DNA of 64,000 nucleotides from Patescibacteria group bacterium (lineage in GTDB: Bacteria; Patescibacteriota; Minisyncoccia; Minisyncoccales; UBA10102). This document shows positions 14,723 to 58,240 of this stretch, piece after piece. The notes below the pieces were generated by a model. That model ran no database searches. It was given only the letters and a program-made list of their open reading frames with translations, and was not told where the DNA came from. The position numbers were made by a program, and so were the translations under genes. Position 1 is the first letter of the stretch; each line of letters begins with the position of its first letter. The DNA lies in the NCBI GenBank assembly GCA_024239055.1, contig JANBVJ010000003.1, positions 504 through 64,503 of the forward strand. The letters run 5' to 3'.

Positions 14723-15469
14723 ATGGCTAAAGGATTCACTGACGACAAGGGAAGATTTAGACCAACAGGAAACAAAGGGGTTAGTTCCAGAACTAAATCA
14801 ATTTCTACAGAAGGACTTGAAATGTCAAAAATACAAAGTGACGTAGATATAACTACAGAAGAGATTGAATTTCAAGATAAACTAATTGAGATTGAGGCAG
14901 ACATAGAGGCAAACTTTGATGATATTTTATTCAAAACAGCATTAAACAAAAGATGTGATTTTAAAGAAGGAAAATTAATCAGAACTAAATTAACGAAGGA
15001 TGATCAAGGATTGCTACCAGAGGGAACTCAGATAGAAGAGTTTTGTGGAGCAGTTACTGATGAGTTAGGAAAATTCATTACCAAAAAATATGGAAAAGGA
15101 ATTGCATGTGAAGAAAGAGGAGTCTACACTGGTGATGACAAGGAAAATAGTGCTGGTTTCAATAGAATCGCAGGAGAAGTTCAACACGAATGGATAAGAT
15201 TACCAGATGGTACAATTATTGATGCATCAGCAGGACAATTCGTTGAGGATAAGGATTCTGTTACAAACGAAGATAGACTACGAATAATTTCTCCAGAAGA
15301 TCCAAGACAGGATTGGTATAATCCTAATTCAAAAATGTGCAATCTATGTGGTGCAAGATTAATTGCTGGTAAGTGTCCAAGTCCTGATGTTGATGCAATA
15401 ATGAAGTTAGTTAACACTGGATTAACCGTAGACGAAGCAAAAGAAAAAATTGCAAGTGAGGGATCGTAA
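14723..15469 (+). CDS. KGF-leader family member 1/15; C-terminal papain/transglutaminase-like Cys-His-Asp signature plus zinc ribbon
   Basis: Start set at ATG 14723: MAKGFTDDKGRFRPTGNKGVSSRTKSISTEGLEM. FCGAVTDELGKFI...QHEWIRLPDGTIIDAS resembles the transglutaminase-like core. CNLCG...CPSP follows. Confidence 0.7.
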   Translation: MAKGFTDDKGRFRPTGNKGVSSRTKSISTEGLEMSKIQSDVDITTEEIEFQDKLIEIEADIEANFDDILFKTALNKRCDFKEGKLIRTKLTKDDQGLLPEGTQIEEFCGAVTDELGKFITKKYGKGIACEERGVYTGDDKENSAGFNRIAGEVQHEWIRLPDGTIIDASAGQFVEDKDSVTNEDRLRIISPEDPRQDWYNPNSKMCNLCGARLIAGKCPSPDVDAIMKLVNTGLTVDEAKEKIASEGS

Positions 15470-16176
15470 TGGTAAAAGGTTTCAAAGATTCAAAAGGAAA
15501 GTTTAGACCTACTGGAAACAAAGGGGTTAGTTCCAAACAAAAAACAATTACATCAACTGGAATGAAATTAAAACCTAGAGTTGATCCTACTTACGGTTTA
15601 ATCGTAGCAAATGGTTATGATGATTTGAAACACAATCCAAACGATCCAGAAGTAAAAAAAGCCTATAACATATTCATTAAAGAAACTTTGGAACAAGCAA
15701 GAGAATTACAAAAGAACGGTGTAAAATTCCAGAGTGAACAATACAAAGATGCAAATGCGATGTTCAAAGATGTTGAAGAAAACAAACATTTGGTGTACAG
15801 ACCATCAGACAAAGATTACAAAGGTGTAGAGGATCATCCAATGTTCCAATTAACAGACATTCGAAACACAAACGGTGATAGGATGCGAGTAAATGATGTT
15901 TTTCGTGCAGTTCATGACATCAATGGTCATAAAAAGGCAAAGGCACAATTTACACCAAATGGAGAACTAGGTTCATACAACGAACATAAAAAATTGTATA
16001 GTAAGAATGCTACCAGAGCATTGTTCACTGAAACTCAAGGTCAAGGCATGTGGGTTAACTTTAACAAAAGATCAGGAACGAAAAATCGACACTTGCAGGA
16101 AATAGGAGATTTCAATGAATTAGACTTTGCTACACAAAAGGCAGATTTGTTTCCAGATTCTATAATTTTTAGATGA
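15469..16176 (+). CDS. KGF-leader family member 2/15; unknown C-terminal domain
   Basis: MVKGFKDSKGKFRPTGNKGVSSKQKTITSTGMKL; TAATG overlap; contains FRAVHDINGHKK. Confidence 0.75.
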   Translation: MVKGFKDSKGKFRPTGNKGVSSKQKTITSTGMKLKPRVDPTYGLIVANGYDDLKHNPNDPEVKKAYNIFIKETLEQARELQKNGVKFQSEQYKDANAMFKDVEENKHLVYRPSDKDYKGVEDHPMFQLTDIRNTNGDRMRVNDVFRAVHDINGHKKAKAQFTPNGELGSYNEHKKLYSKNATRALFTETQGQGMWVNFNKRSGTKNRHLQEIGDFNELDFATQKADLFPDSIIFR

Positions 16177-16182
16177 TAAGAA

Positions 16183-17049
16183 ATGGTTAAAGGATTTACT
16201 GACGAGAAAGGAAAGTTTCATCCAACTGGAAACAATGGAGGAAAGAATGCACCAGATGGCAAGTCAATAGAACCTACTGGAATGAAAATAGAAAAACAGG
16301 AAGAAGAGATTGATCTACGTCATGATAGAAGAAAGCATATTCTAACAACAGGAGAAATACTTCCTAGCAGATTATCATTGACGGTTGAAGAACAACAAGA
16401 GAACATGGAAAGGGGAGAGAAGATTATTGATCAATTTCAACAAGCAATAGATGAGAGAGACGATGATTTTTTTAATGGAAGATCAGTACGTAGTTTTATT
16501 GATACACATGGAGTAGATGTTTCAGATAAATGGATAGAAAATTTAGGAAGGGATGAAGATCAGTTCAGAGAGTTTCTTGATAACAGACTTGAAAAAAGAA
16601 AAGGAGAATGGAATCTTGCAGTACCAATACCTACAGATGGAGCATTTGAAGATCAATTAGCATCAAATTATACAACAAAGTCATACAAAGGAAGAATCTG
16701 GTGGGCAAAAATTAAACCAGAGGTTTTTCTTGAACTTGCATCACCAGTTGGTACATTTACAGAAGATGCAGTTAGTAAATACCAAAATAGTATTCAAACT
16801 GCACAACCAGTAAGCACACCACAATTAGATCTTAGTTGGGATGATGATTCAAAAAAATGGAAAGTTTCTTCACATGAAGGCAGACATCGTTCTCAGGCAT
16901 CAGTAAAAGAAGGTTTAAGTGAAATTCCAGTATGGCTTGAAACTAGAAGAGAGATATGGGAAATGACAGAAGAACAAGAAAACCAACTAAAAGACATAAT
17001 TGCAAATGGAATTACATCAGATTCATTCATTCCAGAACCAATTAATTAA
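16183..17049 (+). CDS. KGF-leader family member 3/15; C-terminal ParB-like domain
   Basis: MVKGFTDEKGKFHPTGNNGGKNAPDGKSIEPTGMKI. WKVSSHEGRHRSQASVKEGLSEIPVWLE resembles the ParB/Srx xGxHR core. Confidence 0.7.
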   Translation: MVKGFTDEKGKFHPTGNNGGKNAPDGKSIEPTGMKIEKQEEEIDLRHDRRKHILTTGEILPSRLSLTVEEQQENMERGEKIIDQFQQAIDERDDDFFNGRSVRSFIDTHGVDVSDKWIENLGRDEDQFREFLDNRLEKRKGEWNLAVPIPTDGAFEDQLASNYTTKSYKGRIWWAKIKPEVFLELASPVGTFTEDAVSKYQNSIQTAQPVSTPQLDLSWDDDSKKWKVSSHEGRHRSQASVKEGLSEIPVWLETRREIWEMTEEQENQLKDIIANGITSDSFIPEPIN

Positions 17050-18858: not shown

Positions 18859-19116
18859 TTAATGGATAGGGATTCGATTAAGGTATATCGAAAGTTTTGG
18901 GATCACTTTAAGTGGATTTTAGCGAGTCCTACTTCTCCGATCAAATCACTTAGTCAACTTGTTACTCTATGTTCAATGAAATGGATAAAAGAATACGAGT
19001 CAGCAAGTCCATCTCAAAAAAAGAGAATGATTGAGGAGATGAAAAATTTACAAAAGGAGGCAGAAAAAAAAGAATTTCTTCATAACTCAAGGGAGATTGT
19101 TGACAATGAAGAATGA
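18844..19116 (+). CDS. hypothetical protein
   Basis: GTG at 18844, or more likely ATG at 18862. Confidence 0.45.
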   Translation: MDKATLMDRDSIKVYRKFWDHFKWILASPTSPIKSLSQLVTLCSMKWIKEYESASPSQKKRMIEEMKNLQKEAEKKEFLHNSREIVDNEE

Positions 19117-20635
19117 GCAACTATCAGCAAAAGATCAACTGTATTATGTTTTTGTTGGTGTTGGAATAGGAGTTGTTTATGTAATATTTTTTATGCTCAT
19201 TACTGGAGTAAATTTAGATTTTATCATACCAATACCAATGGCTTTTGGACAAGTTCAACCATTCGAGTTACAGTTAGAACAGATTAGAAATCCAGAGGCT
19301 TGTACAAGAAAGGTACTTCAAAGTTCAGGAGCATACATACCTTTTACTCTAAAAGTTTTCTACGATACAACTCAGGATAGAAGTTGGGATGTAATTTCAA
19401 AGGCAGAAACATTTCCAGTTGCTCAACAAACTGCACAGGTAGCAACATTCTTCACTCAAGAAATAGATCAATATGAAGTCCATTTAGAAGTTAATTACGA
19501 TAGACCACAAAAAAGACAGGCATACATAGAAGTTCTATCAGAAGGAAGAACAGTTACAAGTTGGCAGGAAAAGTTTGATGATCAAAAGTTTTGTATGACA
19601 TTTTTCATTAATACAAACGAACCACCAACATTTCCAACTAGAGAAGAACTAATTGGTGATCTTCTCACAAATGTAGATAAAATTCCAGAAATGATAACAT
19701 CATTTAACATTAACACGATTACTTGGAATACAAGCATCTCATACATGTGGACTTTGATATTTGCATCAATAGTATTATCAGTTCTAACACTTCTTGGCAC
19801 ATCAATTGTTAACAGAAATGTAAAGTCAAAGATGAAGGATATGGATGATGCAGTAGACCTTGTTGATAAATCAGCAAGAAAAATTGATGAAATGAAGGAA
19901 CCATTCGATCAAATAATTAAAAATCAAAACAAAATTCTAAAGAATCAAGACCTAATACTTGCAAAATCACCAGTTCCAATAGTTGAACCAGAAAAGAAGT
20001 CAAAACTAAGTCAAATATTCAAGAAGAAAACAGAAGATAAGATCGAAGTAAGTGAACATGTAACTAAAGGTTTGAAACCAAAAGGGAAAAGCAGATGGAG
20101 TTTTCTAAAACGAAATAAAGATGAGGATGAGGAATACGAAGAAGAAAAAGACGATGAAGATAACGAAAATGTTTATGATAATGGCAAGATCGAAGTTCCT
20201 CCAAAGGAAGTAAAGGAAGAGAGTGCTAAATTAGTAGAGGTAATTGAAAAGTTAAAACCTGATGTAGAAAAAGATGTTGAAGAGGAATTAGAAGGTGGTT
20301 TTATACAAACATCTAAAGAAGAAAAGGTTCCCCCGACACCCCCTCCAAAAGAAGAAATGCTTCCACCAGTAGAACAAAAGCCATCAAGATTCAAAGAAAT
20401 TTTACGTGCAATTGATTTCAAAAATAATGCATTCAAGGAAGGAGAGTTTGATAAATTCACTTACAATGAACTAAACAACATGTACGGATGGATAGTTCAC
20501 TACAAAAAACGCAAACTAATGTTAAAGGAGTGGGAAATGCTACCAAAAGTGGTACGAGAAAAACAAGACGTTGCTGAGAGAGTAATCTATTATGCAATAT
20601 TTCAAAAAATGGATAAGAGGTTGAAAAATGATTAA
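19097..20635 (+). CDS. membrane protein with long K/E-rich C-terminal region
   Basis: 512 aa; TM segments YYVFVGVGIGVVYVIFFMLITGV and WTLIFASIVLSVLTLLG; charged low-complexity tail. Confidence 0.7.
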   Translation: MLTMKNEQLSAKDQLYYVFVGVGIGVVYVIFFMLITGVNLDFIIPIPMAFGQVQPFELQLEQIRNPEACTRKVLQSSGAYIPFTLKVFYDTTQDRSWDVISKAETFPVAQQTAQVATFFTQEIDQYEVHLEVNYDRPQKRQAYIEVLSEGRTVTSWQEKFDDQKFCMTFFINTNEPPTFPTREELIGDLLTNVDKIPEMITSFNINTITWNTSISYMWTLIFASIVLSVLTLLGTSIVNRNVKSKMKDMDDAVDLVDKSARKIDEMKEPFDQIIKNQNKILKNQDLILAKSPVPIVEPEKKSKLSQIFKKKTEDKIEVSEHVTKGLKPKGKSRWSFLKRNKDEDEEYEEEKDDEDNENVYDNGKIEVPPKEVKEESAKLVEVIEKLKPDVEKDVEEELEGGFIQTSKEEKVPPTPPPKEEMLPPVEQKPSRFKEILRAIDFKNNAFKEGEFDKFTYNELNNMYGWIVHYKKRKLMLKEWEMLPKVVREKQDVAERVIYYAIFQKMDKRLKND

Positions 20636-23006: not shown

Positions 23007-23936
23007 TTGGTTAGAGGATTTAAAGATGAAACTGGAAAGTTTCACCCCACTGAAAGGACATTAGGAAGAACTAGGGCTAATCCTCGACTTCATGACAAAA
23101 CTCTCCAAGTTGGTATTCAAGGTTCTCAAATTGCAATGACAATTGCAAAACAAGCAAAAGATTTTGCAAAGAGAAAAACAAATGAACAGATTGTAAGAAT
23201 CCAAACTACAAAGGAACGCCAAGCAAGGGAATTACAATTACGTAGAGACTTTGAAAAAAGACTGATTAGTTCTTTCAAACGTTCTAGATCATTACAGATT
23301 AAAGATCCAGTTTTATTAAAAAATCAAATTTTAATTGATGTACCTGAGATAAAGGACAATTCCGAAAATCTTAGATTCATTGAAAACATTCTAAATGACT
23401 TTCTCAAACGTGAAAAGAGGAAGGAAAAAGCAATTAAGAAAGCAAAAACTCCAGAAGAAAAAGATCGTATTGAGGCACAGTTTGATAGAGCAGAATTGTT
23501 AGAAGAGGCAGATGTTAAGAAACAATTAGGTAAATCAGAATCACAGTTAAAGAAAAAACAACAAGAAGAGTTAGCAGATTTAAAATCAGAAAAACAAGCA
23601 TTCAAGAAAAAAGAAGAGTTCATCAAAGAAGAGGCAATACAAGACTTTGTTGAAGAAGAAGTTGAGGCAACACTTGCAGAAGATGACCGAATAGTAGCAC
23701 AAGCAACTGTAGATAAAAAAGCAGAAGAACTATCAAAGGTGGCAGAAAAAACAAAAGACGAAAAGGAATTAAGAACTACTGAGGCTTTCATTGACTTTGT
23801 TGAGGCACAAAGCGATGCTCTTGATGCAATTAACACAGAGAGTGCAGAGAAAAAAGATGCAGAAGAGGCAAGGGAAGTCGCTGAAACTTTACTAGGTGAA
23901 CTTGACACAGGATTTCCACCAGAGATTGTAGGGTAG
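23007..23936 (+). CDS. KGF-leader family member 4/15; long K/E-rich coiled-coil C-terminus
   Basis: TTG start: MVRGFKDETGKFHPTERTLGRTR; remainder is E/K/A-rich and heptad-like. Confidence 0.7.
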   Translation: MVRGFKDETGKFHPTERTLGRTRANPRLHDKTLQVGIQGSQIAMTIAKQAKDFAKRKTNEQIVRIQTTKERQARELQLRRDFEKRLISSFKRSRSLQIKDPVLLKNQILIDVPEIKDNSENLRFIENILNDFLKREKRKEKAIKKAKTPEEKDRIEAQFDRAELLEEADVKKQLGKSESQLKKKQQEELADLKSEKQAFKKKEEFIKEEAIQDFVEEEVEATLAEDDRIVAQATVDKKAEELSKVAEKTKDEKELRTTEAFIDFVEAQSDALDAINTESAEKKDAEEAREVAETLLGELDTGFPPEIVG

Positions 23937-23945
23937 TGAAGAAGT

Positions 23946-24653
23946 TTGGGAGTCGCCTCATTCTTAATAAAAAGTTTTTTGGGGGTAATAATTCTCATAA
24001 TTATAATTGTAGCACTTGGAACAGTTGGAACATCATTGATAGGTGCATTAGCAGTTGATACTTCTGATGACTTTGAATCAATCATAGAACTACTAACAAA
24101 AGGTTCGCAACCGAAACCGAAACCTACAGCAAGTGAGTTGTTATGTGATCTAAAACTAATAGTACATGCAGAGTATGATCAAACTCTTCCATTAAGCGAT
24201 TTCTTTATTAGAATTATTTCATCAGGAAATGTAGATGCAATTCACGATTCAGCAAAAGAATACCAATGGAGAGACTGTCATCAATCAACTGAGGTTCCAA
24301 TTGCATCATTACTTGACTTTTCTATAGGGGATGGACAACCATTGTCATTGTTTCCAGTTTTCATAGGTGAAGGCGAAGCAGTAATTACAGAAATTGTTCT
24401 ATTAGATCCAAATACAGGACTTACAATTGATAAAAGTAACGATAGGACTTTACGTAGAAGTATAGATCTTCCAGCAGGAATAGCGATAAATCTTCCTCTG
24501 GATTTGACTCAGACCTATATAATAAAAAATATTCCTCACAGGGATTATGAATTACAGATTTTCTTTCCAGATCATGAGATAAACAGAATGGGTAAAGGAC
24601 AACCATTCATAGATGAGGTTTGTGAGTTCACAAAAATGACATGTTTCAATTGA
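23946..24653 (+). CDS. membrane-anchored protein, tandem paralog A
   Basis: N-terminal TM; shares ELLCDLKLIVHA..., PHRDYELQIFF and PFIDEVCEFTKMTC with 24675..25340. Confidence 0.65.
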   Translation: MGVASFLIKSFLGVIILIIIIVALGTVGTSLIGALAVDTSDDFESIIELLTKGSQPKPKPTASELLCDLKLIVHAEYDQTLPLSDFFIRIISSGNVDAIHDSAKEYQWRDCHQSTEVPIASLLDFSIGDGQPLSLFPVFIGEGEAVITEIVLLDPNTGLTIDKSNDRTLRRSIDLPAGIAINLPLDLTQTYIIKNIPHRDYELQIFFPDHEINRMGKGQPFIDEVCEFTKMTCFN

Positions 24654-24674: not shown

Positions 24675-25340
24675 ATGGGAGCAGGAGGAACAATAATCGG
24701 ACTTTTGATTCTGATTATTATAGTTGTAATAGCATGGGGATATATTCAAAATTTCATAGTAGAGATTCTTCTTACAGGGGATAGACTAGGTACTGCAATT
24801 TTTACTTCGGAGGAATTAGAGGCAACACCTACATCTGAGGAAATGGTTTGTGATCTAAGAGTTACAGTTTTTGCTACAGTTGATGAACGGTTTCCGTTTG
24901 ATGTCTTTGTAAGGGTTCCAGATAGTTCAGGAGAAGTAAAAAGATATTTCTGGACTGACTGTTCACCAGCAAAGGCAACATCATTGTTTTCATTGTTAGA
25001 TATTTCTGAAAACCTAAATGAAGCACTTGGGAATCTAGGTCAACTAGCATTTTTCAGTGAAGAAGATGTAATTACAGTGAACATTAGATTAACCGATCCA
25101 AAGACAGGTGACATCATTGATAAATTCAACAGGGGAAATCTTGAAAAACAAATCGGTGATTTACAAAACAAAAACACACCATTTGATATTCAACAGCAAT
25201 TTTTCATTCCTAATGTTCCTCATAGAGATTACGATCTTGAGATTTTCTATGGTAGAGCAATAAACGAACTACCTATAGGAACACCATTTGTTGATGAAGT
25301 ATGTCAGTTCACAAAGACAACATGCCTAGTTATTAGATAG
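24675..25340 (+). CDS. membrane-anchored protein, tandem paralog B
   Basis: N-terminal TM; EMVCDLRVTVFA..., PHRDYDLEIFY and PFVDEVCQFTKTTC. Confidence 0.65.
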   Translation: MGAGGTIIGLLILIIIVVIAWGYIQNFIVEILLTGDRLGTAIFTSEELEATPTSEEMVCDLRVTVFATVDERFPFDVFVRVPDSSGEVKRYFWTDCSPAKATSLFSLLDISENLNEALGNLGQLAFFSEEDVITVNIRLTDPKTGDIIDKFNRGNLEKQIGDLQNKNTPFDIQQQFFIPNVPHRDYDLEIFYGRAINELPIGTPFVDEVCQFTKTTCLVIR

Positions 25341-25385: not shown

Positions 25386-25577
25386 ATGACGATGCAAGAG
25401 AAAGACGACTACAAGTTCAAGGAATTACACTGTGATAACTGTGATAAATACATGGGATACATCAATGCAATACATCAATCGTTTCCTCATGATTTCTTTT
25501 GTACATTAAAGTGTCTAGAAGATTGGGCTACGAAGAACAAGATTAAAAATATTAAGATGGAAAAACTCAAAAAATGA
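25386..25577 (+). CDS. small zinc-finger protein (FCS/MYM-like)
   Basis: HCDNCDKYMG...FFCTLKCLEDW. Confidence 0.5.
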   Translation: MTMQEKDDYKFKELHCDNCDKYMGYINAIHQSFPHDFFCTLKCLEDWATKNKIKNIKMEKLKK

Positions 25578-25584
25578 ATGAATA

Positions 25585-26178
25585 ATGGATTCTTGTCAAT
25601 ATGTTAACGTATTCAAAGCAATAGATGATAAAGGAACTCAGAGTGAAAAGAGACAAAAATGTGGTCTTAGAATTAGTTTAAGAACTGTTGAGTTCAGACA
25701 TCCCGAATACAAAGATCTATCAAAAGAGTTTATTCTATGTGAAACTCATTACAGAGAGGTTTTTGGTGTAATTGAAGATGAAGAACGTCAGGCTTGGAGA
25801 TTTAAAGAAAATGCATTTTACAGATACAAGGGTGATTTTGCAAAGGCAAAAAACTTAATGGAAACAGGAGTTGGTTATTTTAACGCAGTTGAATACAAGG
25901 GAAATCATTATCGAAAAGTTGAAGATGCAATAAGAAATTGGATGAATATTAGAAAAAACAAATGCAGATTGGAATTATGTAATACAGATCTCAGATCAGT
26001 GAGAAAAGTATTCTCTGTTAGAGCATTTGCTCCAAGTGGAAGAGATTATAAAATGATGTATTTTTGCTGTGAAAATCACTGGAAAAGAAAAATGTACGCA
26101 GTTGAACCAAAAAAACAGGAGGATAATAAAGTAAAACCAATGACACTAGATGATTATCAGGAAGAAATCAAAGCATGA
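25585..26178 (+). CDS. Cys/His-rich hypothetical protein
   Basis: 197 aa; ILCETHY and MYFCCENHW motifs. Confidence 0.6.
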   Translation: MDSCQYVNVFKAIDDKGTQSEKRQKCGLRISLRTVEFRHPEYKDLSKEFILCETHYREVFGVIEDEERQAWRFKENAFYRYKGDFAKAKNLMETGVGYFNAVEYKGNHYRKVEDAIRNWMNIRKNKCRLELCNTDLRSVRKVFSVRAFAPSGRDYKMMYFCCENHWKRKMYAVEPKKQEDNKVKPMTLDDYQEEIKA

Positions 26179-26651
26179 CAAAAAAAGTACAGACCTATAG
26201 ATGTGTTATGGGAGACTTTCCTCCAAACAAAATAAAATACCTACAAGCAATTTCAAGCAGAAAACTCGGAACTTGGATAGGTCACTGTGAAGGAGATGAA
26301 TTACATGAAGAACATCTTGTAATGATTAAAAATCAACAGGATTGGTTCATAAAATATTCAAAAACAAACATCTTCGCTACCAGATGGGAAGAGATCAATA
26401 AATTGACTTCAAAAAGATTGTTCCCAAGACAAAAAAAATTGAGATGTCCAGTAGGGAAAGTACCAATGAATTTGCAAAAAAAACCCACAGATCTAATTAA
26501 TTTAAAAAATACAGAAATCTACAAATGTACAGGTAATTTTCAAGGAAAAGGTCACAAAGAACATCTAGTTAGAATACAACATGGCGCACTAGAAGTCAAG
26601 ATAAATAAAAAAGAGTTGGGTGTTCTGATCGTTACAATTCAATCAGAATAG
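26175..26651 (+). CDS. hypothetical protein
   Basis: 158 aa; ATGA overlap. Confidence 0.55.
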   Translation: MTKKVQTYRCVMGDFPPNKIKYLQAISSRKLGTWIGHCEGDELHEEHLVMIKNQQDWFIKYSKTNIFATRWEEINKLTSKRLFPRQKKLRCPVGKVPMNLQKKPTDLINLKNTEIYKCTGNFQGKGHKEHLVRIQHGALEVKINKKELGVLIVTIQSE

Positions 26652-26652
26652 A

Positions 26653-26775
26653 TTATCTTCGTCTTTTTCTAGCACTTTTTCGTGCAGATGCTTTTCGTTT
26701 AGCCTTTTTCGCTTTTCGAGTTCTAGCACCTTTTTTTCCTGCCTTTACTCTAGAGGCATGAGATTGTTTAGCCAT
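26653..26775 (-). CDS. 40 aa extremely basic protamine / histone-H1-tail-like peptide
   Basis: Hand translation of the reverse strand: MAKQSHASRVKAGKKGARTRKAKKAKRKASARKSARKRRR*. ATG is the complement of 26773-26775, stop the complement of 26653-26655. The only convincing minus-strand gene I found. Confidence 0.5.
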   Translation of the reverse strand: MAKQSHASRVKAGKKGARTRKAKKAKRKASARKSARKRRR

Positions 26776-26923
26776 TGATCTAAAATGGGTTAACATTCAG
26801 TACAAAACAGTAGTAAGTCGATCAAAACTGACCAAAACAAAAACATTTATCAATAAAATTAGTTTAAACTTTTTGATAATCGGACAAATCTCTTTAGGGG
26901 AAACTGAGGCGATGCGATTATTC

Positions 26924-26958
26924 CAACTTGAGAGATGGAGAAATCCACTCCCAAGTTG
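26924..26958 (+). other. Imperfect 14 bp hairpin capped by a GAAA tetraloop
   Basis: CAACTTGAGAGATGGA-GAAA-TCCACTCCCAAGTTG: 7 bp, an A-C mismatch, 3 bp, a 1 nt bulge, 4 bp. Lies in the divergent region between 26775(-) and 27016(+). Confidence 0.45.
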
Positions 26959-27015
26959 AAAAAAGTTCAGCGATCATCTTTAAAACGTTCCTAAATCATG
27001 CAATTTTAGAATATA

Positions 27016-27780
27016 ATGGTAAAGGGATTCAAAGACTCTAAAGGTAATTTTCATCCAACAGGTTCCTCTAAAGAGGAATTTGGAATTCCAAGAAGAAGAT
27101 CAACAAAAAGACGATCTGTAGAAACTGGAGTTGGAAGAACTCTAGAAATCCAGATGCGTAGAACCCAAAAAAAATTTCCAAATGACAACCCACAACCAGA
27201 TCCAATTGGAAATATTTCTTCAACAGAGAGATGGTTAGCAGAAAAAGAAGTTGATTCAATGATAGATGAAGTAGGCTTTGATGACAATCTGTTTGAATTT
27301 GAAAATAAACAAGAGTGGTGGATCTTTGACAAGTTTGAAGATGCAAAAGAAAAAGCAATTGATCAAGAAAGAAATCTTTTAGAAACTGAGGAATCAATTG
27401 TCAGTGACCTTGCACAAAGATTTCCCAATGAAGATTTTGTTTTCATTACTGAAACAGATAAGAGAATTATTGCTAATGAAGATGCAGATAGTATTGCAAG
27501 GAACGATGGCTTGTCAGATTCTCAACGAGACAAACTTACAGATGAGATTGCAGAAAAATTAGAATCAAATCCAGTAGATTATTTTGTTAATGAACGAGGA
27601 ACGCACACAACAGAAAATCTTCTAAATGAAAGTTTCATTAGAAAAGATATTGATAAGATGGCAGAATTTGTAGTGAAAACAGATGGTGTTGGTCATACAC
27701 TTGCTAGTTATGATGGTAATGAAAAGATTGTAAAGGACAAGAAGGGCGATGAACGACTGTATTTGTATAGAGCAAACTGA
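27016..27780 (+). CDS. KGF-leader family member 5/15
   Basis: MVKGFKDSKGNFHPTGSSKEEFGIPRRRSTKRRSVETGVG; acidic middle; C-terminal DGVGHTLASYDGNEKIV. Confidence 0.75.
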   Translation: MVKGFKDSKGNFHPTGSSKEEFGIPRRRSTKRRSVETGVGRTLEIQMRRTQKKFPNDNPQPDPIGNISSTERWLAEKEVDSMIDEVGFDDNLFEFENKQEWWIFDKFEDAKEKAIDQERNLLETEESIVSDLAQRFPNEDFVFITETDKRIIANEDADSIARNDGLSDSQRDKLTDEIAEKLESNPVDYFVNERGTHTTENLLNESFIRKDIDKMAEFVVKTDGVGHTLASYDGNEKIVKDKKGDERLYLYRAN

Positions 27781-27781
27781 C

Positions 27782-28099
27782 ATGGTTAAGGGTTTTAAAG
27801 ACCGTAAAGGTCGTTTCAGACTTTTAGGAAGAAAAAAAGGCAAGTCTGGAAAAGAAAAATCATTAGAGATTCAAAGAAGTGAATTTAGTCCAGTTGATGT
27901 AGCAACTGCAAGGGGAGTAGACTTTGCATTAATGAAAGGAAGGTTACGAGGAAGTAAGAAAGATGCTTTATCAAATGTAGAATTAACATTTGAAACACAG
28001 ATACAAGCAGGAGTTCCAACGGAACTTGCAAAAGTAGAAAGAAAGATTGCACTTAATGAAGTCAAAAGAGAATTTGGAGTTAGTGAAATAGATGGCTAA
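27782..28099 (+). CDS. KGF-leader family member 6/15
   Basis: Start set at ATG 27782: MVKGFKDRKGRFRLLGRKKGKSGKEKSLEIQ. Confidence 0.65.
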   Translation: MVKGFKDRKGRFRLLGRKKGKSGKEKSLEIQRSEFSPVDVATARGVDFALMKGRLRGSKKDALSNVELTFETQIQAGVPTELAKVERKIALNEVKREFGVSEIDG

Positions 28100-28691
28100 G
28101 GGATTCACTGACGACAAGGGAAAATTCAGACCGACAGGAAATAATGGTGGACAAAGTTCTAGAGAAAAATCTATTGAAACAGAAGGTGTTCCTCTAGAAG
28201 AACTTGGAAAAGGAACCGTTGCTCTAAACGTTGATGATCCATTAGCAGAATCTAAAACAAAAAGAAGAAAACAAGCAATGATTCTAAAATTGGATGATAC
28301 TGAGGCAATTATTACTAAACCAGAAATAGAGTGGATGAGAAAATGGTTGAACAATTCATTTGGAAGTGGAACTGATGTTACTGATCAAGAATTTATTGAT
28401 GTAGTAAGAGAAAAAGTTCCAGAAAATCCAGAGGGATTCAGAATTACTCCCGAACAAACAACTCAAGGAATAGAGTTTCTAAGAAAGGCTACAAGAAGAT
28501 CACCTAACAAAGATAGATTTGGAGAAAGGGAGAGAGACATTATTGAAAACTTTAAAGAATTTAGAATAATTGATTGGTTCGATGCAAATCCAAATGTAAC
28601 ATTTTTCGTACCATTGTGGCGAGTTGAATCAGATGACGGTGACACATTCGAATATTATTTCTCTGGTGGGGAAGTGAACATAACTGGCTAG
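28092..28691 (+). CDS. KGF-leader family member 7/15
   Basis: MAKGFTDDKGKFRPTGNNGGQSSREKSIETEGVPLE; ATGGCTAA junction overlaps the upstream stop. Confidence 0.75.
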   Translation: MAKGFTDDKGKFRPTGNNGGQSSREKSIETEGVPLEELGKGTVALNVDDPLAESKTKRRKQAMILKLDDTEAIITKPEIEWMRKWLNNSFGSGTDVTDQEFIDVVREKVPENPEGFRITPEQTTQGIEFLRKATRRSPNKDRFGERERDIIENFKEFRIIDWFDANPNVTFFVPLWRVESDDGDTFEYYFSGGEVNITG

Positions 28692-28698
28692 TGGATTT

Positions 28699-28962
28699 AT
28701 GAAAGATGGAAAGTTTATTCCAACAGGTAGAAGATTCAAGAAAGGATCCAAAGTTCAATCTGTAATAGTAAACAAGAATGACTTTACTGAAAGAAAAGCA
28801 AGAGACAAAGTAAAAGAACTAGGTTTCAAATCTTCAAAGGTTGATAGAACAGCAAATACATTTCGATTCAGACAAATTGATCCATCTAAATGTAAACAAG
28901 GACAGTTTGCTACAATACCAATTACAAACGGAGTACAAGCAGTAATCTGTGAACCGATATGA
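28699..28962 (+). CDS. KGF-leader family member 8/15 (degenerate leader)
   Basis: MKDGKFIPTGRRFKKGSK. In-frame upstream codons read L-A-S-G-F just after a stop, so the leader start is decayed or uses CTG at 28684. Confidence 0.5.
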   Translation: MKDGKFIPTGRRFKKGSKVQSVIVNKNDFTERKARDKVKELGFKSSKVDRTANTFRFRQIDPSKCKQGQFATIPITNGVQAVICEPI

Positions 28963-29345
28963 CTAGAGGTTTCAAAGATCAAAGTGGAAGTTTTCATCCA
29001 ACAAACAGAAACAATGCAGGACAAAGTTCTAGAGAAAAATCTGTTGAACCAGAAGGTATGAAAATGAAACATGGAGTATGCGAAGCATTTTTAGAAAATC
29101 CACCAAGTCATAGAGGAGACGATAAAGAACACACAAATCAAGTTATGTACTCACTTGGCGATGAGAATTGTGCAAGTGTATTAACCGATGAAGAATTTTC
29201 AATGTTGCTTACAGATGATCAAGTTGCAAATACTTTTTCACCGATTGGGGAAACTGCCAAAAAATGGGAGGAGGATGAAAAGTTTCGTGCAAAAATTATA
29301 GATCGTACACAGGAATTAATTAAGGAAAAAGAAAAAAATGGCTAA
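28959..29345 (+). CDS. KGF-leader family member 9/15
   Basis: MTRGFKDQSGSFHPTNRNNAGQSSREKSVEPEGMKM; ATGA overlap. Confidence 0.7.
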   Translation: MTRGFKDQSGSFHPTNRNNAGQSSREKSVEPEGMKMKHGVCEAFLENPPSHRGDDKEHTNQVMYSLGDENCASVLTDEEFSMLLTDDQVANTFSPIGETAKKWEEDEKFRAKIIDRTQELIKEKEKNG

Positions 29346-29790
29346 AGGTTTCAAAGACTCTAAAGGAAATTTTCGACCAACTAGAAGTAATGGTAGAAAA
29401 TCTTCAAGAAAGAAAACAACAACTACAGGAGGAATTGAACCTAGAGAACCATTTGCAATAAGAGAAAGAGTCAGACTGTTAAGTGAAGATGAGTTGTCAA
29501 GAGACTTTTCTTTTAATGAATTAGAACAAGCAAGATCTGAAATTGATGATCTTCTAAAAAATAGATATTTTGATTTGAATCCAGACAGTGATTTCTTTAG
29601 TGAGACAGTAGCATTTGATTATGCAGAAGAACAAGGTAGTAATTTAGATCCTGATTTTGATATTCTACTCACTGAGTTAAGAAAAGTAAACAGAGCAAGT
29701 ACAAACAAAGTATTACGAGGTTTAGGAGGCGCACAAATTACAGATCCTGAACCAACAGGATTTCCAGAAGTAGATGAGATGATGCGTTAA
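29338..29790 (+). CDS. KGF-leader family member 10/15
   Basis: MAKGFKDSKGNFRPTRSNGRKSSRKKTTTTGGIEP; ATGGCTAA junction. Confidence 0.7.
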   Translation: MAKGFKDSKGNFRPTRSNGRKSSRKKTTTTGGIEPREPFAIRERVRLLSEDELSRDFSFNELEQARSEIDDLLKNRYFDLNPDSDFFSETVAFDYAEEQGSNLDPDFDILLTELRKVNRASTNKVLRGLGGAQITDPEPTGFPEVDEMMR

Positions 29791-30173
29791 TGGCTAAAGG
29801 TTTTAAAAAAAAAGGAAAATTCATTCCTACAGGTAACAAGAAAAAGAAATCATCAAAGTCAAAATCAACAGGAACGTTTGGAATTAAATTATTTAAAGAA
29901 AAAGAACCAGTGAGTGCAAGTAAAGTTACATCTAGAATTAAAGCAGATCTTAATGCAAGGAAAAACTTGAGAGAGAAAAACACAATGTTAGTATCAGAGA
30001 TTGAGGATAATCCAGAATCAGAGTTTAACATTCCTAGACGACAGAAGATAAAAACAAATAATTCTGAAATCAAACGTTTAAACAAAGACATTAAGAATAA
30101 TTTCAAATCACTTAGTAAGGAACAGCAACAAAAACTTCCAGTTGAAGTACAGTCAAGATTGAGGACAGGATGA
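29790..30173 (+). CDS. KGF-leader family member 11/15 (K-rich)
   Basis: MAKGFKKKGKFIPTGNKKKKSSKSKSTGTFGIKL; TAATG overlap. Confidence 0.65.
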   Translation: MAKGFKKKGKFIPTGNKKKKSSKSKSTGTFGIKLFKEKEPVSASKVTSRIKADLNARKNLREKNTMLVSEIEDNPESEFNIPRRQKIKTNNSEIKRLNKDIKNNFKSLSKEQQQKLPVEVQSRLRTG

Positions 30174-30835
30174 TGGCAAAGGGATTCAAAGACAATAAAG
30201 GAAAATTCAGACCAACAGGACAACCAGCAGGAAGGTCAAAGAAAGAAAAAACAATTGACACCACAAGTGGTACACTGATAACAGAAGGAATTTTCGAGTT
30301 TATTCCTAGAGAAACAGGAGTTTCTTTTGATACTGCAAGTGAAAGATTTATTGAATTTAGAGAAATGAATGAAGATTTGGAAGGATTTAGTTTTGATCCA
30401 GTAATAAATCAGGGATTTGATTTCAACAATAATATTCAAGCAAAAGAGTTTCATGATCTGTTTGTAGAAGGAGGAGACGAAAATCCTGTATTTGTAATTG
30501 GTGTTCAAAATCAGTTAGGAAAAAATCCAACTAGAGCAACTCAATCAGCATACGAGGAAGTAAAAAATGATGGAAGAAATCCATTGATTGGAGGTTCGAT
30601 AGATGGATTGACAGGAGAACCACTTACAGATGTAGCATTTCCAGTTTCAGGAATTAACAGAGAGGAGGCATTTGAATTAGCAGATGAATATGCTCAAGAT
30701 TCTATTGCAACAATATTCAATAGTGGTCAATTCAGAGTTGAAAATGTAAATCCAGAAGAACCATTCGTGACCTCAACTATAGAATCAATTTCTGCATCAG
30801 AACTAATTGCAATGCAAAGGAAACCAAAACCATAG
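30170..30835 (+). CDS. KGF-leader family member 12/15
   Basis: (M)MAKGFKDNKGKFRPTGQPAGRSKKEKTIDTTSGTL; ATGA overlap. Confidence 0.75.
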   Translation: MMAKGFKDNKGKFRPTGQPAGRSKKEKTIDTTSGTLITEGIFEFIPRETGVSFDTASERFIEFREMNEDLEGFSFDPVINQGFDFNNNIQAKEFHDLFVEGGDENPVFVIGVQNQLGKNPTRATQSAYEEVKNDGRNPLIGGSIDGLTGEPLTDVAFPVSGINREEAFELADEYAQDSIATIFNSGQFRVENVNPEEPFVTSTIESISASELIAMQRKPKP

Positions 30836-32162: not shown

Positions 32163-32384
32163 ATGGTTAAAGGTTTCAGAGATGCAACAGGGAGATTTAG
32201 ACCTACTGGAAAGAACAAAGGTAAGTCAAAGAGACGTAAGAGTTTGGGAGTAGAGATAGTTTCAGTTACTCTTGAACCAAAAACTATCAACAAAGTAAAA
32301 CAAAGACAGGTAAAGAACATCAAGAAAGGAACACCAAATCCTTCATTCTCTCAGGCAATCAATCAATTAGTAGATCAGGCATAG
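32163..32384 (+). CDS. KGF-leader family member 15/15; C-terminal RHH-like module
   Basis: MVKGFRDATGRFRPTGKNKGKSKRRKSLGVEIVSVTLEPKTINKVKQRQV...SFSQAINQLVDQA (strand-helix-helix pattern). Confidence 0.65.
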   Translation: MVKGFRDATGRFRPTGKNKGKSKRRKSLGVEIVSVTLEPKTINKVKQRQVKNIKKGTPNPSFSQAINQLVDQA

Positions 32385-36429: not shown

Positions 36430-36583
36430 AGCAAAACCATTCGGTGGTTACAACATAAAATTTGAAAACTGTCCAGAAAGTATGGAAGATGTTTTCGGAA
36501 AAAAACCACTTAGTCCATCAGAGATGACAAAGGTTCTCTGGAAGTTTATAAAAAAACATAGACTGTCTGGATACAATGATTAA
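36422..36583 (+). CDS. SWIB/MDM2-like fragment (53 aa)
   Basis: Hand translation: MPKAKPFGGYNIKFENCPESMEDVFGKKPLSPSEMTKVLWKFIKKHRLSGYND. Resembles the first half of SWIB (G..P.sR.Ev.K.lW.YIK.h.Lqd) and then ends. Confidence 0.45.
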   Translation: MPKAKPFGGYNIKFENCPESMEDVFGKKPLSPSEMTKVLWKFIKKHRLSGYND

Positions 36584-36807
36584 GCACCAATAATCCACTC
36601 TGGTACTAATCTCAATTTAGAACCACATGTTTTACAGAAGATACGACCATCAATTTCATAGGCATCATTAACTCCATGTGATTCACAACAGAATTTTTTC
36701 AGAACTACCTTGTCATAATTACCAAACACGAAGTTGAGACGGAGAGGCTATTAACATATTAGGATAACAAGAAAAATTGACTTTGGAGTGGAAATAAAGG
36801 GGTAAAC

Positions 36808-37020: not shown

Positions 37021-37112
37021 AATTTCAAATCACTACGTAGTATATTTGAATTGTTCGTTTATGTGAACAAACAATAAAACATATACTACTACTACTACTA
37101 ATTTACTTAATG
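37021..37112 (+). promoter_or_regulatory. Promoter/operator cassette A
   Basis: AATTTCAAAT-ca-CTACGTAG-ta-TATTTGAATT; TTGTTC-N8-GAACAA (37051-37070); ACATATA box (37079-37085); (ACT)x5 (37085-37099); ATG 37110, about 28 nt from the box centre. Confidence 0.65.
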
Positions 37113-40051: not shown

Positions 40052-40142
40052 AATTCAAAAACCCTACGTATAGGAATTGAATTGTTGTTCAAATTGAACA
40101 AACAATGCTTAATAACTACCACTACTACCAATTATGTTAATG
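40052..40142 (+). promoter_or_regulatory. Promoter/operator cassette B
   Basis: AATTCAAAAacc-CTACGTAT-aggAATTGAATT; perfect 17 bp palindrome TTGTTCAAATTGAACAA (40085-40101); TTAATAA (40109-40115); ACTACC/ACTAC repeats; ATG 40140. Confidence 0.65.
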
Positions 40143-44520: not shown

Positions 44521-44580
44521 GTTTGTTCACTTTGAACACACAACTCTTTAATACTACAACTACTACTACTACTACTAATG
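44521..44580 (+). promoter_or_regulatory. Promoter/operator cassette C
   Basis: TTGTTC-acttt-GAACA (44523-44538); CTTTAATA box (44546-44553); (ACT)x6 (44559-44576); ATG 44578. Confidence 0.6.
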
Positions 44581-52513: not shown

Positions 52514-52582
52514 TTTGTTCATAAGTTATAGAGAAAACAATATAAGATATACTACTACTACCAAAGGTGTAGAATTACTATG
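52511..52582 (+). promoter_or_regulatory. Promoter cassette D (degenerate)
   Basis: GTTTGTTC half-site, TATAAGATAT box, (ACT)x3, AGGTG SD-like, ATG 52580. Confidence 0.45.
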
Positions 52583-52800: not shown

Positions 52801-52975
52801 TAAACCGCTACGTAGCATAATTGAAATTCAATCAGGCATCAAAACAGGAAAAAACTAAAGTCGATTTTTGTCGTTACCTGCACCTGCTGGATAACGCTGA
52901 GTCACGAACAGAAGGTGTTCAGCAAAAAGCACATACAATACTTTATAACTACTACTATAACTACTACTACCAATG
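52801..52975 (+). promoter_or_regulatory. Promoter/operator cassette E
   Basis: CTACGTAG (52808-52815) + TTGAAATTC; GAACA-gaagg-TGTTC (52906-52920); CTTTATAA box (52941-52948); ACT repeats; ATG 52973, about 28 nt from the box centre. Confidence 0.6.
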
Positions 52976-58201: not shown

Positions 58202-58240
58202 AATGCTTAATAACTACCACTACTACCAATACTTAATGAT
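58202..58240 (+). promoter_or_regulatory. Promoter cassette F
   Basis: The 29 nt AATGCTTAATAACTACCACTACTACCAAT (58202-58230) is identical to 40104-40132. ATGATG at 58236 lies about 28 nt from the TTAATAA centre. Confidence 0.55.

Follow-up and report, generated by a model that had tools for sequence, protein, structure and literature searches.

A conserved polybasic micro-protein encoded antisense in an undescribed mobile-element family of marine sediments

The 64,000-nucleotide (nt) stretch of contig JANBVJ010000003.1 analysed here (the window) belongs to an undescribed, unclassified family of mobile elements of marine and deep-sea sediments, up to at least 79 kb in size, and its minus strand carries at 26653-26775 a micro-gene for a polybasic peptide of 40 amino acids (aa). 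To judge from the way its sequence has changed among relatives, this open reading frame (ORF) is almost certainly a real protein-coding gene, and its product very probably binds nucleic acid. The kind of molecule, a tiny polybasic nucleic-acid binder, is familiar; the family itself is an orphan. What is unusual is that its conservation falls into two parts, that no other gene of the element family is as well conserved, and that it stands alone in antisense position next to a conserved divergent control region.

The micro-gene reads ATG GCT AAA CAA ... AGA TAA on the minus strand, with its ATG at 26775-26773 and its TAA at 26655-26653, and encodes MAKQSHASRVKAGKKGARTRKAKKAKRKASARKSARKRRR. An earlier note on this DNA had described a 40-aa minus-strand ORF without acidic residues at this position, convergent with the 158-aa plus-strand gene 26175-26651 (1 nt from stop to stop) and divergent from a plus-strand array that begins with gene 27016-27780 (240 nt from the micro-gene start to that ATG), all of which the sequence and the ORF list bear out. 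Its count of 22 lysine (K) and arginine (R) residues is too high, since the peptide contains 11 K and 9 R (20 of 40 residues), together with 9 A, 4 S, 2 G and 1 H, and no D or E. The window is AT-rich (GC 0.27-0.37), and apart from shadow ORFs its coding lies wholly on the plus strand. The note's further statement, that no other convincing minus-strand gene was seen, agrees with the genes called on three stretches of the source contig, but it might have to be revised: a candidate, an uncalled 49-aa CxxC ORF (MFGNYDKVVLKKFCCESHG...CKTCGSK..., zinc-ribbon-like) lies on the minus strand at 36580-36729, within a 526-nt gap in plus-strand coding.

The longest open frame reaches an ATG at 26796 (47 aa), which is the start chosen by the gene callers on the source contig. 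We rejected this form, as well as the 56-, 59- and 62-aa forms proposed by gene finders, because the sequence before the Met of MAKQ varies among relatives (MLTHFRS, VFIILHGF..., MFCNSS...), is closed by stops or is shifted in frame. The MAKQ start is the sole conserved start codon; the 40-aa form is thus the real one, beginning at that Met.

A search with the 47-aa form returned 12 clusters, all of which carry MAKQSHASRVKAGKKGARTRK followed by a K/R tail, and 39 loci fetched from related metagenome contigs yielded 15 distinct nucleotide alleles. All 15 alleles are open in frame, with lengths of 111, 120 or 123 nt. Over codons 1-21, which align without gaps, pooled pairwise comparison gives a proportion of synonymous differences (pS) of 0.376 and of nonsynonymous differences (pN) of 0.059, for a pN/pS of 0.16, while the other five frames over the same columns range from 0.41 to 1.92 and each contains stops (9-40). 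The synonymous exchanges include TCT/TCA/TCC, GTA/GTG/GTT and AGA/CGA/CGT/AGG, with multi-base changes such as AGA/CGT among them, and all indels in the micro-gene are multiples of 3. Similarly, the window and the related locus L006 differ at 3 of 123 nt in the micro-gene, all three synonymous, where the neighbouring gene shows ~10% nucleotide difference. The conservation of the ORF is far beyond chance, and by these substitution patterns the micro-gene is under strong purifying selection. The earlier note had named a frame not kept in relatives as a refutation of its proposal, and the outcome of this check clearly favours a gene.

The presence of an ORF alone would be no better than chance, since the plus-strand gaps of the window hold 17 minus-strand ORFs of at least 30 aa, and ORFs of 30-50 aa are frequent there. 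An accidental frame in a T/C-rich plus-strand terminator or spacer, an alternative raised in the earlier note itself, would also fit the four tracts of at least five T on the plus face of the ORF right after the operon end (the density in the window predicts 0.25 such tracts for the 124 nt 26652-26775, and all four fall within 26652-26745), the lack of a Shine-Dalgarno sequence before the ATG and the failure to call the micro-gene on some relatives, but it is contradicted by the confinement of the low pN/pS to the coding frame, by synonymous swaps of Arg and Ser codons, by the in-frame indels, by a frame that is open in distant elements as well as in all alleles, and by a peptide better conserved than each neighbouring protein, and we consider it extremely improbable. 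A plus-strand terminator role is, moreover, compatible with coding on the minus strand.

The micro-gene is kept and syntenic in every related element found, including those whose core proteins are only 41-55% identical, and in every relative it is the lone opposite-strand gene. Its stop and that of a 153-181-aa homologue of gene 26175-26651 are separated by +5 to -4 nt in all lineages, and most contigs with enough flanking sequence have an array-type M(A/V)KGF... gene opposite its start, ~220-320 nt away. The peptide core is 86-100% kept where the 158-aa neighbour drops to 52-58% identity, and the peptide ranks first in identity among all proteins in each of five element comparisons (75-88% versus 22-80%). 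In L035, L036 and L037, in which the 512-aa core protein of the element is 41-43% identical, the ORF is present though missed by gene callers, and encodes MARQSHASRVKAGKKGA(K/R)TRARKKA(K/S)R(K/R)ASARKSARRRKR. The most distant syntenic orthologue found, MGKRTKAQRSASARKGARTRKAKASKKKRKRR in L039, has a core reduced to its KGARTRK half, and the homologue of the 158-aa neighbour there is 42% identical. Another lone opposite-strand small gene (56-61 aa, VFNGKNRFCIPIPNVKIEDVDVK...) occurs on the minus strand of the same three relatives (L035 623-793, L036 1385-1555 and L037 4741-4926), and tblastn finds no counterpart of it in the window.

The conservation of the peptide falls into two parts. In residues 1-21, MAKQSHASRVKAGKKGARTRK, 16 of the 21 columns are invariant across 13 homologues, while residues 22-40 vary in length and sequence in the alignments and always keep their K/R richness and charge. 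Constraint on composition only is therefore seen for the tail, and residues 1-21 are instead constrained in sequence. Given the alignment of the family, AlphaFold2 models residues 6-39 as a single helix (mean predicted local distance difference test score, pLDDT, 90). On grounds of physical chemistry, an all-basic helix with neither an acidic residue nor a hydrophobic face would need a polyanionic partner.

The core motif [ST]HAS[YF]VxAGKK[GA]A[RK]T[RK] is also found, twice in tandem, in two 46-aa peptides outside the element family (P0061 and P0064), of which P0064 (L034 4559-4699) lies just 3' of a cellular 1471-aa DUF11 surface protein. Four copies of a looser form, RVxAGKKAA[RL]T[RK], occur in P0063 (159 aa, SP-rich). 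The recurrence of the core motif suggests that it is an autonomous module.

The peptide has no match in Pfam, PHROGs or NCBIfam at E <= 1-10, among PDB sequences (queried both by the peptide alone and by a profile), in 50,697 phage records (tblastn), in IMG/VR or in the GTDB species genomes, and none at E <= 1 to the linker-histone and Hc1 families of Pfam. A profile search run exhaustively against 1.84 billion representative proteins returned only eight matches, comprising family members, P0061, P0064, P0063 and two eukaryotic IQ-repeat proteins. For the last two the E-values, 1e-10 and 1e-8, sum the contributions of 17 and 13 repeats, respectively, and AATKIQAGFRGAQTRK is identical to the IQ sequence HASRVKAGKKGARTRK at 9 of 19 positions. 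We rejected an assignment to the IQ motif ([ILV]QxxxRGxxxR), as its defining Q and its first R are both K in the peptide (V-K-x3-K-G-x3-R) and the E-values arise from repeat summation; the peptide also lacks the hydrophobic face and the calmodulin context. The resemblance is regarded as convergence, and as a warning on matches to short basic motifs.

The 240-nt divergent spacer is, judged from an alignment of 13 diverged loci that defines its blocks, a conserved control region, as had been supposed for it (Table 1). The TTT(T/A)GTAC region upstream of the micro-gene may be a TATA-like box from which an mRNA with a short leader or none would start. The sequence ATTTTAGA of the CATTTT(AGA) block recurs 6 nt before the ATG at 27016. 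Farther upstream, the element AAATGTTTT is invariant in the 13 loci and is conserved as DNA, being frame-shifted between lineages; an upstream ORF starting at AAATGTTTT was accordingly rejected, as nucleotide conservation is found there without conservation of a reading frame. In one lineage (L025, L028, L035 region) a ~53-nt tandem duplication of the AAAATGTTTTGTAATTCGTCAATTAAAGGAGACAT block upstream of the micro-gene doubles the conserved A/T box and the AAATGTTTT element. The TTTAAAA/TTTTAAA box on the far side of the spacer is likely to be the TATA-type promoter element of the divergent array.

Between these blocks lies a hairpin or dyad, assessed by folding each sequence separately. The stem CTTGAG.../...CTCAAG gives way to an entirely different one in distant lineages: L039 has the hairpin GGTGTC-GAAAA-GACACC in the same slot (about 97-113). 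The hairpin is always ~20-27 nt from the TTTTAAA box, and after it comes a C-run, which is CCCC in L039 and TCCCC in most lineages. Per-sequence folding reveals no consistent strand preference, and the spacer and hairpin give only sub-threshold chance matches in Rfam.

Table 1. Features of the micro-gene and its surroundings, in window coordinates
Feature	Coordinates	Strand	Basis
Micro-protein coding sequence	26653..26775	-	15 open alleles; same protein independently called on other contigs
Codons 1-21, near-invariant motif MAKQSHASRVKAGKKGARTRK	26713..26775	-	16/21 invariant, pN/pS 0.16
Codons 22-40, K/R/A/S-rich tail	26656..26712	-	Length and sequence vary by lineage; total peptide 30-41 aa
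CATTTT(AGA), 4-11 nt before micro-gene ATG	within 26779..26807	-	13-locus alignment
T-rich box TTT(T/A)GTAC, centred ~28 nt before ATG	within 26779..26807	-	13-locus alignment
A/T-rich box then AAATGTTTT(T)G, ~65-80 nt before ATG, candidate alternative promoter element	26838..26858	-	
Intergenic hairpin/dyad CAACTTGAGAG..CTCCCAAGTTG	26924..26958	unassigned	10/10 sequence variants, -10 to -22 kcal/mol
Invariant TTTAAAA/TTTTAAA box, 31-37 nt before 27016 ATG	26979..26985	unassigned	13 loci; same order in L039
First gene of divergent leader-protein array, leader M(A/V)KGF(K/T)DxKGxF(R/H)PTG	27016..27780	+	
158-aa convergent neighbour, two Cys/His-rich half-repeats, syntenic anchor	26175..26651	+	
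Oligo-T face of ORF, candidate archaeal-type terminator for upstream operon	26652..26745	+	
Convergent-junction hairpin TTCTGAT/ATCAGAA, inside last codons of 158-aa gene	26623..26648	unassigned	
T6 run ~40 nt past peptide stop, candidate micro-gene terminator	26607..26612	-	

Many internal genes of the window have GAGGT or GGAGG 6-10 nt before their start, while a TATA-like box precedes the ATG by 25-31 nt in the genes at the heads of blocks, which, like the micro-gene, lack a Shine-Dalgarno sequence. In our own reading of the sequence, this layout would be typical of archaea with leaderless first genes. A scan for sigma-70 promoters and intrinsic terminators yielded weak promoter matches alone and not a single terminator. 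At six places (37085-37099, 40115-40129, 44553-44576, 52551-52562, 52960-52971 and 58213-58227) an (ACT/ACC)n tract of 12-24 nt precedes a candidate start codon by no more than 10 nt. At the three block-first genes of this kind that were inspected (37110, 40134 and 44578), a TATA-like box lies immediately upstream and a Shine-Dalgarno sequence is absent, and the tracts look like a second class of promoter or 5' end, distinct from the ATTTTAGA type (11851, 16183, 27016 and the micro-gene).

At the other end of the micro-gene, the codons that encode its many lysines may also serve the plus strand, as an oligo-T terminator. The convergent-junction hairpin folds in most lineages and shows compensatory stem changes (TTCTAAT/ATTAGAA, TCCTAAT/ATTAGGA). 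A run of at least five T is kept at the position of the T6 run in all lineages examined, but because this run overlaps the 158-aa coding sequence, its conservation is ambiguous as evidence for a terminator of the micro-gene.

A peptide in which half of the residues are K or R, none is acidic and the charge of the tail is always kept is expected to bind a polyanion. Our leading but tentative reading is that this polycation binds nucleic acid, is docked in a sequence-specific way by its N-terminal motif, and most likely coats the DNA of the element itself. The conserved upstream boxes and the downstream T run point to an expression unit of its own: the micro-gene would be expressed independently of the long plus-strand operons, from a promoter in the divergent control region, to give a product of ~4.5 kDa with a net charge of ~+20. 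The K/R/A-rich C-terminal half would provide a sequence-independent electrostatic grip on the phosphate backbone, probably becoming helical once bound, and the N-terminal 21-mer (minimal kept core KGARTRK) would dock onto one partner that does not change across lineages. The most likely target would be the element's own double-stranded DNA, which would be coated and neutralised for compaction, packaging or protection.

Protamines, adenovirus Mu and VII, baculovirus P6.9 and SSV1 VP2 are likewise very short, about half K/R and free of acidic residues; condensing proteins of this type should lack structure on their own and become ordered on DNA, and the tail of the peptide, with its variable length and sequence and constant charge, is comparable. 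Unlike these proteins, the peptide has a near-invariant 21-mer and the top conservation in its element, and it shares no sequence similarity with them. With histone H1 tails and the A/K repeats of Hc1 and HU tails, it has in common an A/K/S/R composition and AKKA- or ARKS-like units, but it has no winged-helix domain and no S/TPKK units, and its arginine is about as frequent as its lysine. The relation to H1, Hc1 and viral core peptides that the earlier note had drawn from these repeats does not stand as a sequence relationship (Pfam, PHROGs, NCBIfam, PDB and phage records), and the near-invariant 21-mer is unlike fast-evolving condensers constrained in composition only.

Several points weigh against a DNA-coating role. 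No DNA-binding or condensing protein emerged as a homologue from the searches described above. Neither the Pfam and PHROGs scans nor the model of its 512-aa protein revealed capsid, portal or terminase genes in the element, and the family is absent from virus collections, so that a role in virions finds no support from these sources. Known condensing peptides such as protamines are constrained mainly in composition and evolve fast. SSV1 VP2 is patchy in distribution and dispensable (PMC9608457). For an N-terminus with 16 of 21 positions invariant, a conserved machine of the host, for instance the ribosome, is no worse a partner than DNA, and the ligand may be RNA rather than DNA. The data neither favour nor disfavour a protamine-like peptide of a virion core, which is one live hypothesis.

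The peptide is the most conserved protein of the element, which fits a ligand that does not evolve, and for this reason the ribosome deserves attention as a partner, although we consider it unlikely. In this alternative the micro-protein would enter the small subunit of the host ribosome like eS30, eL41/eS32 and bS22, which are likewise small (25-60 residues), polybasic, at least partly single helices and extremely conserved, as expected of rRNA ligands. Close to the A site and the channel through which mRNA enters, it would mimic or compete with the eS30 N-tail and bias translation towards the mRNAs of the element, many of which appear to be leaderless, as the block-first genes with TATA-like boxes and no Shine-Dalgarno sequence would suggest. 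Indeed, the core SHASRVKAGKKGARTRK is identical at 9 of 17 positions to the archaeal eS30 N-terminus SHGSLTKAGKVRSQTPK (PDB 9fhl_e, 9e71_Ba), a match reached by 5 of 20000 composition-preserving shuffles, and hhalign of the family against an eS30 alignment aligns the same residues with P = 8.5e-4. TACK and Asgard archaea are expected in sediments of this kind. The protein eS30 is limited to TACK and Asgard archaea and eukaryotes, with its N-tail at h44 and the A site (PMC11698992). There is also precedent for viruses that encode ribosomal proteins kept by purifying selection (PMC6375957).

The resemblance to eS30 was, however, found post hoc, after about ten families had been mentally tried, and its P values need to be corrected accordingly. 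There is no match to Pfam Ribosomal_S30 (PF04758) at E <= 1, a home-made eS30 hidden Markov model scores 2.4 bits (equalled by 236 of 20000 shuffles), the hhalign probability is 24%, and the profile search of 1.84 billion proteins retrieved no eS30. Although 9 of 17 positions of the eS30 signature (S)HGSL(T/A)(K/R)AGKVRxQTPK are identical, its G, L, V, R, Q and P are replaced: the residues G5, L7, V13, R14, Q16 and P18, invariant in a four-sequence eS30 alignment, are absent from the peptide, as is the C-terminal Tyr/Arg. The L039 orthologue (MGKRTKAQRSASARKGARTRK...) lacks the S-H and A-G-K matches, and the 9 of 19 match to eukaryotic IQ motifs is equally good, which argues that such short matches arise by convergence. 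Moreover, the micro-gene lies on a mobile element, not in a ribosomal operon, and the only contig label is that of a Patescibacteria bin, that is of bacteria, which have no eS30. The specific version in which an eS30-like N-tail and a polybasic helix would sit in the small subunit of a TACK or Asgard host and favour leaderless mRNAs is quite improbable, and we know of no ribosomal-protein mimic previously described from an archaeal mobile element.

A third possibility, which we consider distinctly unlikely, is that the peptide is an arginine-rich-motif regulator whose N-terminal motif binds the hairpin of the control region as RNA, in the manner of lambda N-boxB or Tat-TAR, and thereby controls the leader array or its own gene by antitermination, stabilisation or autoregulation. 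The peptide is short, arginine-rich and predicted to be helical, and it shares a short basic helix with the N proteins of lambda and P22 and with HIV Tat and Rev; a conserved promoter-proximal hairpin adjoins its gene, always between the micro-gene and the array and near the invariant TTTTAAA, and the wholly different stem of L039 occupies the same slot, with its GAAAA loop on the sense strand of the micro-gene. A unidirectional genome of ~79 kb full of T runs would presumably gain from antitermination. The kept core GARTRK also recalls the A-x-T-R-R of lambdoid N peptides, presumably no more than a lead, as it concerns 5 residues and is not a test. But the peptide core is near-invariant while stem and loop of the hairpin vary, which is the reverse of what a co-evolving pair would show, and the hairpin, which favours neither strand and has no Rfam match, is perhaps a DNA dyad. 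In addition, the whole protein consists of 30-41 residues of basic helix and has no effector region with which to contact NusA or polymerase, and to our knowledge no antitermination of the lambda-N type is known in archaea.

Genes of fewer than 50 codons are routinely missed, and this micro-gene is uncalled on several related contigs. In elements with almost nothing else that can be annotated, the peptide is the best handle available, as a marker by which to find them, as an inexpensive synthetic reagent for assays of DNA or RNA binding and as a bait for its partner. If the partner is DNA, the peptide would add a sequence-constrained type to the condensing peptides constrained in composition only; if it is the ribosome or a transcript hairpin, the peptide would represent a new takeover of host gene expression by mobile elements of archaea or candidate phyla.

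The 158-aa neighbour places the window, in reverse orientation, on the 79,121-bp ENA contig ZHAO22-1_SAMN11268109 scaffold_156. Relatives of the element occur in marine-sediment assemblies, including the Loki's Castle whole-genome shotgun sets SDBS, SDBT, SDBU and SDBV, SMUX, the JGI sets Ga0209980, Ga0114947 and Ga0392323, and several Logan assemblies, and none were found in IMG/VR, the GenBank phage records or 185,579 GTDB species genomes. Pfam and PHROGs searches with ~30 proteins identified only SNF2, GmrSD_N, a HerA/Zot-like ATPase, an MscS-like protein, MT-A70 and DUF7447; relatives also encode a winged-helix protein of TrmB/ArsR type, and the ATPase has a weak likeness to plasmid ATP-binding or type IV secretion system proteins. 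The 512-aa protein (19097-20635) is kept in all relatives. The suspicion that it is a terminase was rejected on its AlphaFold2 model, which has no significant fold match in the PDB. The model (pLDDT 67) comprises an N-terminal helix, a nine-strand beta-sandwich (residues 70-172), a coiled coil of two ~50-residue helices, a disordered linker and a small C-terminal domain. Several core proteins carry transmembrane or signal segments, and a particle, for example that of an enveloped archaeal virus, is possible. The sole taxonomic label comes from one contig protein, deposited in NCBI as a hypothetical protein of a metagenome-assembled genome named 'Patescibacteria group bacterium', which is a bin label and not a host assignment, and the clues to the host conflict: this label stands against a promoter layout that looks archaeal, with TATA-like boxes at block heads and Shine-Dalgarno sequences on internal genes.

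The proteins of the three consecutive genes that precede the micro-gene (25386-26651) are rich in Cys and His, in the patterns CxxC...(F/Y)(F)CxxxC and HxxH: one of 63 aa (HCDNCDK...FFCTLKC), one of 197 aa (...YFCCENHW) and the 158-aa protein with its two half-repeats. By eye they resemble zinc fingers of the FCS/TRASH type, and they have no significant Pfam match. The leader-protein family has at least 13 paralogous genes in the window (14723-17049, 23007-23936 with a TTG start, 27016-30835 and 32163-32384). Its leader of ~40 residues consists of M(A/V)KGF(K/T)DxKGxF(R/H/I)P(T/I)G, a basic linker and G(V/M/I)x(L/I), is followed by unrelated C-terminal domains and has a shortened form at 28699-28962. 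The leader belongs to no Pfam or PHROG family, and a profile search finds close relatives alone, none of them named. The same architecture fills the array in diverged relatives (for example L007 536-9743). Two adjacent paralogues (23946-24653 and 24675-25340; 235 and 221 aa) share the C-terminal motif (F/P)(I/V)DEVC(E/Q)FTK(M/T)TC, and a transmembrane segment lies at the N-terminus of both.

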